Source: a virus. From it: a stretch of DNA of 51,465 nt. Numbering within the stretch: the first letter of the stretch is position 1; each line of letters opens with the position of its first letter. Positions 3,506-51,155 of the stretch are shown in pieces. The notes below the pieces were generated by a model. The model did no database searches. It was not told where the DNA came from and was given only the letters and a program-made list of their open reading frames with translations. Both the position numbers and the translations under genes were made by a program. The stretch is from the UHGV virus genome UHGV-0241168, one strand, 5' to 3'.

Positions 3506-3677
3506 AATAACACGTCCTTTCAAACAAAAAACGGAGTCCGTGAGGAGGGCGGCGACGTGTACCAACCCTTGAATCCTCACGTCCTCCATGTCTCTATTGT
3601 CGCATAAAAAATCCCCGCATGGGTGGCATCCATGCGGGAGTTATGTGGAAGTTATGATGAAATCCTTTTTCCTTATA

Positions 3678-25910: not shown

Positions 25911-25929
25911 GCGTTCTCCTTTGCGGCTA

Positions 25930-26028
25930 GGCTTTTTAGGTCGTTGCCGTGACCAACCGCCCCGCACTTTTAGGCTTGCGGATAGCCAAATTTAATTGAA
26001 TCTCCCGTAGTTTAGCGACTTCGGGTCG
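25930..26028 (-). ncRNA. Three tandem mini-pseudoknots in the scaffold 5' leader (GP20-type cis element)
   Basis: CGAC/GTCG+CCG/CGG, GGCT/AGCC+TCCGCA/TGCGGG, GGTC/GACC+GGC/GCC, each with a TAAA linker. Confidence 0.65.
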
Positions 26029-30983: not shown

Positions 30984-31619
30984 TTATAGTTCCATATTGG
31001 GGTAAACTTTTTCCCACACGTTCACGTGGTAAGTATTGACTTCGCCATAATTGGCATCGAAAATCTTTTTAACTCCATATCCCTGTCGTTGGCTTTCGAG
31101 TTTGAGCTTCCGCCAGTCAAAAACCTTATATGATACTCCATTCAGATGTGCTACTCGTTTGATGGAATACCATTCCTTGCTCCTATCCAGCTCTGTCTCC
31201 AGCGCCTTTCTCTTATCCTGTTCGTCTCTTAGCGCAGTAAGCAGTTTGATGCCAAACTCCGGAGAGTTTATCATCTTATCGATCGTGTCCGAGGTCATGT
31301 AAGCCCCGTGCTTGCGAATGCTGGGTAATACCTCACTCGTCACCCAGCGCTTGAACTTCTTGGCCCCGGGAAGCTTGCTGGAAAGGACGAGGGAATACAG
31401 GCCGCTCTCGTTGATAAGTACAATCGGTGTCCCGTTGACGCTGAACGTTTCGTTCACCGTCTTATCCTCATCATCAACGTGGTCACGGATTGCCTTTTGT
31501 GGGTTCGTGTAACCCAGTGCTAATGCCACATCCTTACCAACCAGCAATGGCTCCCCGTCCAATCCCACAGTACGAATCTCCCCAAACTCAGGGTTGTTAA
31601 AAATCATCAAGTCGTTCAT
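30984..31619 (-). CDS. BRO-N domain (antirepressor-like) protein
   Basis: FNNPEFGEIRT, GKDVA.ALGY, INESGLYSLV, FKRWVTSEVLPSIRKHGAY. Confidence 0.92.
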   Translation of the reverse strand: MNDLMIFNNPEFGEIRTVGLDGEPLLVGKDVALALGYTNPQKAIRDHVDDEDKTVNETFSVNGTPIVLINESGLYSLVLSSKLPGAKKFKRWVTSEVLPSIRKHGAYMTSDTIDKMINSPEFGIKLLTALRDEQDKRKALETELDRSKEWYSIKRVAHLNGVSYKVFDWRKLKLESQRQGYGVKKIFDANYGEVNTYHVNVWEKVYPNMEL

Positions 31620-31729: not shown

Positions 31730-31899
31730 CATTTTTCGAGAGGCGGCGGGATATTACCCCGCCATGCGTTTCCTCCCATTAGTCCCGCCCCCGTCTCGTG
31801 CAACTGCGGGGCGGCATATCCCCCTTTGCGAGGGAGCTGTGAGTTTTTCGGCTTTTCTCACTTGCCTTTCGCCAAGAAATTCTGTAAGGACTTGCGCCC

Positions 31900-31973
31900 T
31901 GGCACGGGTGGAAGGCTCTGTTCCCCCAACCTCCGGTTTTGGAGACCGGCGCTCTCCATTGAGCTACACCCGT
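31900..31973 (-). tRNA. tRNA-Trp(CCA) with atypical T-loop
   Basis: ACGGGTG/CACCCGT acceptor, GCTC/GAGC D-stem, CCGGT-CTCCAAA-ACCGG anticodon arm, encoded G-CCA end; T-loop AACAGAG. Confidence 0.85.
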
Positions 31974-32112
31974 ATATGTGCGCTTCCCGCTTAATTGTCA
32001 CACGCCGCATATCGGCCCCGATTGCGGAATTCTGGCGCAGTTTTCAGCGGGCATTGTCATTCTCTCTGAGGACTTGCGCTACGCTCAGATCATCCGGGAG
32101 CGACCCGGCCTC

Positions 32113-32206
32113 TGGTGGAACATCGCGGCCCTGCCCCGCTTTAGCACTTAGAGCAACGTGCCCTTCGCTTGCTGTGACCTCCCCGTTTTTGGGGTGCCTA
32201 TGTTCC
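32113..32206 (-). ncRNA. tRNA-like RNA without a canonical anticodon arm
   Basis: Perfect GGAACAT/ATGTTCC acceptor + A-CCA; GCGG/CCGC arm with 7-nt loop at the T-arm position. Confidence 0.55.
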
Positions 32207-32287
32207 GCATGCCCCCGTCTTTCCGGGGTGTCAGCTCCGTGGCCTTTGGAGCAGGCTTCATTTATGCCTCGCGAGGAGATCGTAAAT

Positions 32288-32346
32288 TGCCGCATGGAGG
32301 GTGCGACCCTCCGGCCCGGATGCGTGGGCTGATTCACTCGTGCGGC
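32288..32346 (-). ncRNA. Minimal tRNA-like RNA (acceptor + T-arm + one hairpin)
   Basis: GCCGCA/TGCGGC stem stacked on GGAGG-GTCGCAC-CCTCC. Confidence 0.5.
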
Positions 32347-32428
32347 ATAGGAGGCCCGGAGGCGGAGGCGAACCCCCGGGCAGAGGGGAAAAGGAGTGGG
32401 AGTGCAGAGATACGCCCCCACACTCCCA

Positions 32429-32469
32429 TTTTCCCATACATTGACTTTTCTGCTCCCACTTTTGTGGGA
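32429..32469 (-). promoter_or_regulatory. Putative late promoter with palindromic operator
   Basis: TCCCAC-N4-GTGGGA (32454-32469) upstream of a TGgGAAAAT extended -10-like element, right after an HTH gene. Confidence 0.45.
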
Positions 32470-32502: not shown

Positions 32503-32733
32503 TTATAGCCTGTGTACAAACGGGAAATTTGTCCGCCCCAGCAGATAGTCAGTGCTGACTCCATAGTAATCCGCGATCTTGTAAAGCGCATCCATTGAGG
32601 GCTCTACTTCTCCCCGCTCATATCGTCTCAACATATCAGGGTGCAGCCCCATCAGCTGTGATGTAACTGTCATACTCCGAACTGGCCGCATACTCTCCCT
32701 CAGCCTCCTCAGCCTATCCGGGAACTCATTCAA
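32503..32733 (-). CDS. XRE-family HTH protein, probable late regulator
   Basis: YERGEVEPS..L.KIADYYGVSTDYLLGR; last gene before the packaging operon. Confidence 0.85.
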   Translation of the reverse strand: MNEFPDRLRRLRESMRPVRSMTVTSQLMGLHPDMLRRYERGEVEPSMDALYKIADYYGVSTDYLLGRTNFPFVHRL

Positions 32734-50111: not shown

Positions 50112-51155
50112 ATGCCAAAAATTCCAAAATATTATGTGCGTCCGGATGGTCTACATGAATCTATCTTGCGTATAAAAATGCCGGACGGAACAACGAAACG
50201 AAAGGCATTCCGTGGAAAGACGGATAAAGAGGTCTGGGAAAAGATTAAAGCATATAATCGAGATGTAGATAATCGCCCAACTTGTGTTCTGTTTAGTGTC
50301 TGTGCAGATTCTTGGTGGGATGAAATCGAACCAACTTTGGAACATAATACCGCGAAAAGTTATCGGCCAGCTCTTATGCGTGCAAGAGATCACTTTGGAA
50401 AATATCCAGCGGATCAAATAACAGCGCAGGATATTGATCGGTACATTAAAGATTTTTCGGTAACGAGAGCTCGAAAAACCGTCGTCACTCAGTTGCAAGT
50501 AATCCGGCAAATTATGCGGAAAGCGGAGGTCGATGGATATATCAAATATAATCCGGCTCAAGCTATTAAGCCTCCACGCAATTTACGGCAAAAGCGTCGC
50601 GATGCTCCTGATAAAAATCAGATAGCCCTCATAAAAGCTTCTACAGAGCTTCCATTTGGTCTTTTTGCCTATTTAATCTATCATACCGGGTGTCGTCGCG
50701 GAGAGGCGTTAGCGTTAACCGGAGGCGACATTGACAGAAAAAACAAATTAATACATATCACAAAATCAGTTTACTATATGGGCAACCAGCCACATATTAA
50801 ACAGCCGAAAACAGAAAAAGGATTCCGGGATGTTCCTTTGTTGGACGCATTAGATAAACTGCTCCCAAAACGACTCCCGAAAGGATATTTGTTTGCAGAG
50901 CCAGACGGTGGATTATTAACTAATGACCATTTTACTGTACTTTATAATAGGTATCGTGATGAATCCGGAGTAACCGTTACCCCACATCAAATTCGGCATG
51001 GCTACGCTACTGCTCTATTTGAAAATGGTATCGAGCCAAAAACTGCGCAAGTTCTTCTGGGGCACGCCCAGCTTTCTACCACGATGGACATCTATACACA
51101 TGTTTGCTCCGATATAATTGAAGAGGCAGCGAAGAAGATGAACGATGGATTTTAA
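50112..51155 (+). CDS. int: Tyrosine integrase
   Basis: HTGCRRGEAL (R), K in QPKT, HQIRH, LLGH, TMDIYTH. Confidence 0.95.
   Translation: MPKIPKYYVRPDGLHESILRIKMPDGTTKRKAFRGKTDKEVWEKIKAYNRDVDNRPTCVLFSVCADSWWDEIEPTLEHNTAKSYRPALMRARDHFGKYPADQITAQDIDRYIKDFSVTRARKTVVTQLQVIRQIMRKAEVDGYIKYNPAQAIKPPRNLRQKRRDAPDKNQIALIKASTELPFGLFAYLIYHTGCRRGEALALTGGDIDRKNKLIHITKSVYYMGNQPHIKQPKTEKGFRDVPLLDALDKLLPKRLPKGYLFAEPDGGLLTNDHFTVLYNRYRDESGVTVTPHQIRHGYATALFENGIEPKTAQVLLGHAQLSTTMDIYTHVCSDIIEEAAKKMNDGF

Follow-up and report, generated by a model that had tools for sequence, protein, structure and literature searches.

INTRODUCTION

Theta ribozymes are minimal HDV-like ribozymes located at the 3' ends of phage tRNAs (PMC10879173). 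In plant mitochondria, t-elements adopt non-canonical tRNA-like folds that may be reduced to acceptor-like stems; they keep the canonical T-arm motif, set mRNA ends in the organelle and have been proposed as cut signals for RNase P and RNase Z (PMC1920247). The TMERs of gammaherpesvirus-68 are clustered viral tRNA-like units that are co-transcribed with cargo RNAs, and they are described as not aminoacylated and as processed by RNase Z (PMC4337559). GOLLD and ROOL are structured noncoding RNAs found near tRNAs in prophages (PMC5737381). Thousands of unnamed viral RNA candidates, including tRNA-like ones, have also been reported (Fremin 2023, PMC10690425).

In this work, we analyzed the 51,465-nt viral genome UHGV-0241168, referred to at its whole length as the window. 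The minus strand at 32430-31740 had been described in an original prediction, made from the sequence, as a cluster of tRNA-like and hairpin RNAs. Comparison with related phages indicates that the region is a real, selected, modular array of noncoding RNAs. With theta ribozymes it shares a setting in gut phages and a structured RNA that starts within about 1 nt of a tRNA 3' end. Unlike t-elements, the units of the array flank noncoding RNAs of a phage; their T-loops are altered, and CCA is often part of their encoded sequence. TMERs are eukaryotic Pol III genes with miRNA cargo, whereas the array, with its exchangeable cassettes, is predicted to form a single late transcript in a bacterium. GOLLD and ROOL are much larger than the modules of the array, none of which matched their family models. 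The literature searched gave no description of such arrays in these phages or of a widespread RNA in them, here called the tRNA-trailer RNA; the candidate-RNA alignments of Fremin 2021 (PMC8040213), Fremin 2023 (PMC10690425) and Weinberg 2017 (PMC5737381) may list some of the modules.

RESULTS

Phage setting of the array

Annotation with Pfam and PHROGs indicated that the window is an apparently complete temperate phage genome. An integrase gene (50112-51155) is followed by replication genes, and the terminase, portal, head, tail and amidase genes are on the minus strand. The nearest named phage match to the array region is Flavonifractor phage Chenonceau. A search of GTDB with a module pattern gave six matches, including Flavonifractor plautii, Pseudoflavonifractor phocaeensis, Muriventricola aceti and an Oscillospiraceae MAG, and locus L377 is an array carried by F. 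plautii ATCC 29863; the host group is Oscillospiraceae-type gut bacteria. Elsewhere in the window, the known Rfam motifs RAGATH-31 (3533-3587) and GP20-b (25928-25987) are both on the minus strand.

The array sits at the head of the packaging-gene operon, between a gene for an XRE-type HTH protein (32503-32733, minus strand; Pfam HTH_3, PHROG 8) and the BRO-N antirepressor gene ant (30984-31619, minus strand, likely start 31619), which is followed by putative terS, terL and portal genes. In many relatives, ant is missing behind the array. The HTH protein is a likely activator of the downstream promoter, and a 16-bp palindrome at 32454-32469 is its predicted operator. An extended -10-like element, TGnGAAAAT (32428-32436, minus strand), is a predicted promoter and is kept across homologous leaders. 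Among 24 leader variants, the palindrome sequence changes together with the helix sequence of the HTH protein, and the spacing between the palindrome centre and the -10-like element is constant in 19 variants and differs by 1 nt in one more. A consensus promoter scan, which requires a -35 element, had no match at the TGnGAAAAT element. From these features we infer an activated late promoter upstream of the array.

In the leaders of L031-L382 and of the window (32733-32428, minus strand), the small XRE-HTH gene and the palindrome vary as a pair. The palindrome stands at a class-II-activator distance from the -10-like element, and the gene and the palindrome together resemble a swappable late-activator/operator module. 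In locus L380, the slot of the HTH gene holds a longer ORF, which we take to be ArpU/RinA-like. Many viral contigs (L048, L049, L062, L066, L067, L077, L083, L084, L090 and L092) end 95-165 nt upstream of terS, which would fit either assemblies that break in the variable array or genomes that end close to a packaging site.

Just outside the array is a known RNA motif, int-alpA (RF02996; 31652-31722, minus strand), with a score of 40.7 bits against a gathering threshold of 35.8. It appears not to be mentioned in the main text of PMC5737381. The int-alpA loop (GCCRCCUU) is complementary to the ribosome-binding region of ant (window 31722-31617, minus strand). The pair is GCCGCC/GGCGGU in the window and, with compensation, GCCACC/GGUGGU in L035, L050, L053 and L111; it is mismatched in L031, L044 and L242. 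The complementarity suggests that int-alpA, a motif without known function, may have an anti-SD role.

In phage P1, C4 RNA controls ant. The antisense C4 RNA is also an RNase P substrate (PMC11143913), and the likeness to the array is that RNAs of the RNase P substrate type precede an antirepressor gene in both. A C4-type antisense immunity RNA was rejected, since Rfam gave no C4 match in the region. A duplex scan against the ribosome-binding region of ant found notable pairing only from int-alpA and from M9, a module of the array.

Modules of the array

As had been predicted, the region holds no credible coding sequence. Its 224-, 125- and 110-aa ORFs had no PHROG match. Among 81 homologous loci, the 224-aa ORF reached at least 80% of its length in none, and the 125- and 110-aa ORFs reached 80% only in one near-identical phage. 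Coding readings of the region were therefore rejected.

All the elements listed in the original prediction are present on the minus strand of this modular region, in the order M3, M4-M5, M6, trailer RNA, tRNA-Trp, M8, M9 and M10. Four tRNA-like units (a 59-nt mini-cloverleaf, a 94-nt CCA element, tRNA-Trp and a minihelix) alternate with structured spacers. The module M1 (32385-32428) contains the predicted 5' hairpin, a leader hairpin at 32428-32397, and a pyrimidine tail; it gave a terminator-like match, and its fold is kept in other sequence variants. The M2 hairpin (32354-32381) is a predicted fold in a slot whose content differs among relatives.

The 59-nt acceptor and T-arm element is M3 (32346-32288), a miniature tRNA-like unit with 63 distinct variants and no Rfam match. 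It has a 6-bp acceptor stem, no proper D stem, a 3-4-bp stem with a variable loop, and a T-arm with the loop GUCGCRC. The spacer M4+M5 (32287-32213) consists of a weak hairpin, a GCUCC/GGAGC hairpin, UGAC and a hairpin with a GGAAAGAC loop, and includes the predicted element GCTCC/GGAGC-TGACA-CCCCG-GAAAGA-CGGGG at 32252-32213. M4 is present in four loci only, and M5 recurs with variant stems. The 94-nt ACCA element is M6 (32206-32113), a descriptor match with a perfect 7-bp acceptor stem and a 4-bp T-like arm. It has only 10 close viral copies, and its slot in relatives is occupied by true or near-true tRNAs starting with GGA. A loop-loop pseudoknot within M6 is a possible pairing, for which the 10 close copies gave only a one-sided G-U/G-C change.

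The trailer RNA (M6b+M7; 32112-31978) is followed by tRNA-Trp(CCA) at 31973-31900, the spacer M8 with the predicted GNRA hairpins at 31899-31820, the minihelix-like hairpin M9 at 31815-31785 and the M10 hairpin at 31778-31737. By comparison of module orders, M9 is usually the last tRNA-like unit; it ends in CCA in some relatives and not in the window, and its 5' strand is predicted to form a 12-bp pairing with the ribosome-binding region of ant. M10 is a predicted fold with 16 variants in 60 matches.

In the array region, Rfam identified only tRNA-Trp (53.9 bits) and, just downstream, int-alpA, and it found no families beyond tRNA and int-alpA in 20 homologous loci; an Rfam identity for any other module was therefore rejected. 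ARAGORN missed the tRNA-Trp of the window. A further predicted feature, the repeat GCGCAAGTCCT, does occur twice, with its second copy at 32069-32079 instead of 32068-32078. Its reading as a shared motif or antisense target was rejected, as it is not conserved and falls in a variable loop of the trailer-RNA family; judged from its variation, the repeat is probably a coincidence.

The folding energy was not significantly different from that of shuffled sequences for the whole region (z -0.93) or for the trailer RNA (z +0.80), and was thus rejected as proof of structure. The case for structure therefore rests on comparison. Four of 20 listed sequencing runs, all in the form of contigs, were compared with the array: the one recorded as RNA and two presumed RNA runs gave no coverage of it, and the fourth is probably DNA.

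Exchange of modules among related phages

The comparison set consisted of 80 loci anchored on terS, 120 on M7 and 120 on M3; because the homologues are kin, the counts taken from them overstate independence. Figures for 44 loci with an intact leader showed that the array slot is filled with differing strings of modules, in 21 orders, and that the array varies from 357 to 2036 nt in length, most modules being dispensable. Alignment ends of relatives against the window pile up at the unit borders 32349, 32287-9, 32252, 32115, 31974-7, 31900 and 31819. In relatives, the module borders are the 5' ends of acceptor stems and the CCA or discriminator 3' ends. The clustered ends may reflect recombination or selection, and either implies discrete units.

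A descriptor of acceptor stem, T-arm and NCCA had 107 sense matches in 59 de-duplicated arrays, compared with 21 antisense matches and with 14.9 +/- 1.9 matches in 20 shuffles, in a count where the arrays are kin and not independent and some 5' ends are mis-assigned. Some tRNA-like units in the arrays are true tRNAs (Gln, Thr and Ile), and at the other extreme are units that lack a D stem and minihelices of 36 nt.

Further units were seen in the relatives. The tRNA-like class E (L031:1975-2140, L044, L070, L076 and L377) has a fixed acceptor, D-like start and T-arm, the last with the loop UGCAAAU, and a hypervariable middle of 40-140 nt. Two units placed after M7 in L094, L050 and L377 are very common: a CCA-ended class-D unit of 81-84 nt without a D stem and with the T-loop CUCAAUR/CUCAUUA, and a 36-nt CCA-ended minihelix. 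In most close relatives (L031:1650-1950, L133, L123 and others), the cargo slot holds a larger RNA, which is opened by UGAC-stem-GGAAAGAC, is closed by the M7 stem and tail, and has no Rfam match. In L033:1226-2130 and L069:1985-2760, accessory genes on the reverse strand are inserted between M7 and M9, so the slot also accepts protein morons.

tRNA-like units

Five classes of T-arm occur in the arrays, and all have lost the canonical UUC loop. The third loop position is still C in all of them, and the fourth is nearly always a purine. Loss of the UUC loop with retention of the third-position C is as expected if only processing is selected. The base before a tRNA-like unit is a pyrimidine in 97 of 98 distinct leaders; 61 leaders end in AU, and 78 in AU or AC.

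For M3, 97.7% of cells pair, and changes on both sides of a pair numbered 18, compared with 3.8 in shuffles. Only three pairs covary, a count reached by 236 of 500 shuffles. The covariation lies in the acceptor and T stems, in a set of which part was pulled with the T-arm pattern. The loop of M3 is hypervariable, and only 9 of the 63 distinct variants end in NCCA. The M3 model matched three genus genomes and L382, and none of 151 order-wide genomes, a draw without a positive control. AAUGAC often stands directly after M3. A G-UCGCN-C loop is common to the M3 T-arm (window 32310-32290) and P1 of the trailer RNA (32109-32093), possibly a shared tertiary module of the two RNAs.

The tRNA-Trp has a cloverleaf with anticodon, discriminator and encoded CCA. 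Its 95 redundant matches comprise nine variants. All nine keep the anticodon and have the non-canonical T-loop AACAGAN (AACAGAG in the window); none has a TTC T-loop, and the elbow-forming UUCRA is absent. One compensatory change was found in the anticodon stem. Every one of the 59 viral matches to the spacer M8 starts right behind the NCCA of one of two unrelated units (tRNA-Trp or a 36-nt minihelix) and ends before the next tRNA-like start.

Covariation and distribution of the trailer RNA

The trailer RNA at 32112-31978 (minus strand, 135 nt) has the consensus GNNG-P1(UMGCN loop)-(A/C)UGAU-P2-RRAGAAUGAMAAUG-P3(variable)-AANNGCAC. Its sequence stretches include UGAU and GAAUGACAAUG, and P3 spans 15-178 nt among the cores. 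The original prediction had listed CCGG-GTCGCTC-CCGG (32108-32094) and a CCCGCT...AGCGGG domain (32051-31986) as separate elements; they are the two ends of one RNA.

A pattern derived from M6b, which held no tRNA information, gave 86 viral matches, six of which were dropped as chance (L386, L389, L400, L407, L409 and L438). A related pattern gave 119 metagenome matches, with about 340 estimated. The trailer-RNA cores numbered 104 distinct sequences, or 103 after L539 was dropped. In 60 cores, 94% of cells pair and 8 of 13 pairs change on both sides. Cells with changes on both sides numbered 70, compared with 18.1 +/- 3.2 in shuffles, none of 500 reaching the observed value; the four invariant P2 pairs, which stood in the search pattern, carry no weight in this covariation. 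RNAalifold recovered P1 and P2 unaided. The closing pairs of P3 vary compensatorily in the 66 cores with a parsed tail, for which the parser requires pairing.

A third pattern, which lacked the 3' half, gave 116 matches, 71 of them distinct. The strand GAAYGANAAYG was found in 55 of the 71, with near variants in the other 16, and because the pattern lacked the 3' half, this conservation is not a search artefact. Covariation was found in the trailer RNA as well as in M3. Taken alone, M7 covaries weakly (1 of 15 pairs), and in most close relatives it occurs without the 5' half, usually at the end of a different, larger RNA. Since M7 covaries weakly and occurs separately, the trailer RNA of the window could be recombinant.

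The covariance model matched 1 of 151 class-wide genomes, namely the one that has phage DNA in common with the window. Among 121 genus genomes it matched six, of which L661 and L662 look like chance coding matches. The trailer RNA is also found inside large tRNA clusters; L393:374-645, a single phage tRNA cluster, holds two copies, each behind a different tRNA. Rfam gave no match to the trailer RNA in 20 diverse loci, and ROOL and skipping-rope RNAs adjoin some members. On the covariation, 32112-31978 is one RNA of a family without an Rfam match.

Resemblances to hammerhead, twister, twister-sister, pistol, hairpin, SAM-I, c-di-GMP-I, ToxI and tmRNA-like RNAs were rejected, since the cores misfit and Rfam gave no match. 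The signal for a pseudoknot between L1 and the tail was slight (2.85 vs 2.69 bp, 27/2000 shuffles), and the pairing is broken in several members; it was likewise dropped. The RRA-GA/UGA arrangement of the trailer RNA may be k-turn-like, and a double T-loop is another conceivable reading.

Position of the trailer RNA relative to tRNAs

The trailer RNA was found behind M6, tRNAs, class-D units and a minihelix. A T-arm lies upstream in 81 of 103 cores; the other 22 have no canonical T-arm upstream, and several of these are behind aberrant units. In the 81 cores, the 5' edge falls in discrete registers after the discriminator: +3 in 42 (38 with CCA), +1 in 28, 0 in 5, +4 in 4, +2 in 1 and -2 in 1, with none at 5-25. 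The same register pattern was obtained in an independent pull with the pattern lacking the 3' half. The 5' edge is 0-1 nt from the mature tRNA 3' end in 40 of 45 cases, compared with 4 of 20 tRNA-to-tRNA spacers in the same loci. P3, the last stem, ends 8-15 nt before the next tRNA, also in 40 of 45. The upstream tRNAs encode CCA in 25 of 45, compared with 45 of 98 other tRNAs (p 0.37). A divergent copy found with the covariance model is flush between tRNA-Lys and tRNA-Ile. Another divergent match (L660, G417:C15:1223-1290) has no tRNA upstream, and may be a counter-example or a free-standing form.

DISCUSSION

On balance, we favor the reading that the tRNA-like units of the array are punctuation, at which RNase P and a 3' cut would free the spacers as cargo RNAs with a possible anti-host role. 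Judged from known enzymology and the sequence, one late transcript would start at the HTH-activated promoter, and host RNase P would cut it at the 5' end of each acceptor stem. A 3' cut at or beside CCA would then free the spacer RNAs, chiefly the 135-nt trailer RNA, and these may work in trans to counter functions or defences of the host at a late lytic stage. An anti-host purpose, taken by itself, is only a tentative proposal, to which cassette turnover, restriction to mobile DNA and late position point.

The observed basis of the punctuation reading is position, alternation, mosaic exchange, covariation and flush ends, the borders being defined by conservation. As in t-elements and TMERs, acceptor and T-arm folds were found whose ends coincide with these borders of the neighbouring RNAs. 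E. coli RNase P cleaves acceptor plus T-arm hairpins at the right site and reads RCCA, and leaders with A-2/U-1 stack favourably for the enzyme (PMC11143913). The reduced units keep the acceptor, the T-arm and the leader context, and cargo abuts both of their ends; tRNA punctuation is therefore favoured. The polycistronic precursor of the original prediction, with RNase P-type sites, agrees with the comparative anatomy of borders, leaders and flush spacers. The same proposal had invoked RNase Z, whose part in cutting the CCA-ended units is doubtful, as the B. subtilis enzyme is repressed by CCA (PMC7479834). The 3' cut would then need another nuclease or a Thermotoga-type RNase Z; enzymes able to cleave behind CCA are the RNase Z of T. 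maritima and the RNase E of E. coli (PMC7479834). Cleavage after CCA is the weak step of the reading. Exonucleolytic trimming, an alternative for 3' processing, would destroy the cargo. Further points stand against punctuation: tRNA-Trp keeps an anticodon that is needless for a mere cut signal, folding energies are no better than those of shuffles, M7 alone covaries weakly, 22 of 103 cores lack a canonical T-arm upstream, and the divergent member L660 has no upstream tRNA.

The main rival, which we consider rather unlikely, is that the trailer RNA belongs to an uncatalogued class of self-cleaving ribozymes. It would cut at its own 5' edge and, like theta ribozymes, mature the 3' end of the upstream tRNA; the array would then be a tRNA cluster with its own processing elements. 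Self-cleavage would remove the problem of CCA and RNase Z. The discrete registers of the 5' edge, the conserved single strands beside freely varying peripheral stems such as P3, and a compact tertiary fold suggested by the k-turn-like arrangement and the weak L1-tail pseudoknot signal (27/2000) also speak for it. The RNase Z gap, the flush 5' edge and the conserved joining strands are the reasons for which this rival was kept. The nested P1/P3/L3 topology of HDV and theta ribozymes is lacking, however, as none of 103 cores fit a nested double-pseudoknot descriptor in which the 5' strand of P1 is closed after P3-L3 (UYCNCG). Rfam gave no HDV-type match in the region or the diverse loci, and the models of other self-cleaving ribozymes in Rfam 15 matched nothing, with a cutoff of E<=5 for the region and of E<=0.5 for 20 diverse loci. 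No single scissile position would yield a mature end in every register, and just 79 of 103 cores begin with G. Whereas 4.5% of theta-linked tRNAs encode CCA (PMC10879173), about half of those upstream of the trailer RNA (25/45) do so, and a CCA end left with a cyclic phosphate would have to be healed; scans that covered 47 window proteins with Pfam and 21 with PHROGs gave neither a ligase nor a CCA-adding gene. Unlike theta ribozymes, the trailer RNA is also bounded at its 3' end by the next tRNA, which is needless for a ribozyme that cuts 5'.

Less probable still is that the array serves to make the tRNA-like units themselves, which would be decoys or substitutes towards host nucleases, synthetases or sensors that target tRNAs, with the spacers as structural by-products. 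From array to array, the slots hold many different tRNA types and reduced forms, and tRNA-Trp keeps the anticodon CCA, G73, A1-U72, an encoded CCA end and a compensated anticodon stem. The anticodon, G73 and A1-U72 are, we assume, TrpRS determinants. Phage tRNAs can counter a retron defence (10.1101/2023.03.15.532788). However, no tRNA-like unit is as widespread as the spacer RNA or covaries as strongly, the hypervariable loop of M3 and its scarce NCCA ends fit poorly, and the anticodon loop of tRNA-Trp is identical to that of the host and is thus not an anticodon-loop escape variant. The anticodon-nuclease decoys of the original prediction are neither shown nor favoured, since this loop is that of the host and the best-conserved part of the array is the non-tRNA RNA between the tRNA-like units.

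We give little credence to the view that the array acts in cis as a late leader, for antitermination, formation of an mRNA 5' end or translational control of ant, without release of free RNAs. It does lie between the predicted activated promoter, with its terminator-like hairpin, and ant/terS, and the ribosome-binding region of ant can pair with the int-alpA loop and with M9, which most often closes the series of tRNA-like units. A leader of this kind is hard to reconcile with the range of array lengths and dispensable modules, with the reverse-strand genes that interrupt the array in some relatives, and with the presence of the trailer RNA within large tRNA clusters; the cis reading may hold for M1, M9, M10 and int-alpA only. 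That the array is a decaying tRNA cluster with hairpins as remnants, as the aberrant T-loops, missing D stems and unremarkable folding energy might suggest, is largely refuted by the compensatory changes in M3, tRNA-Trp and the trailer RNA, with aberrant loops fixed across many phages and modules exchanged whole.

Processing punctuated by tRNA-like units has precedents in t-elements and TMERs; an array of this kind in a phage, with an uncatalogued RNA family, appears to be new. The array suggests that part of phage biology escapes gene callers and tRNA finders, namely a set of recombining noncoding RNAs in a slot used by temperate phages for accessory genes, with punctuation by tRNA mimics that would be reduced to processing signals. 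The trailer RNA provides more than 100 distinct, strongly covarying examples with sharp ends. Should it be self-cleaving, which we regard as rather unlikely, it would be a new structural class of ribozyme in the tRNA clusters of gut and rumen phages; in these temperate phages, the ribozyme together with stripped-down tRNA mimics would divide a late transcript into swappable small RNAs. If it is not, it would still be a widespread phage small RNA and part of a natural scheme for multiplex RNA expression in gut Clostridia. Either way, the array bears on why phages retain odd, apparently non-decoding tRNAs.
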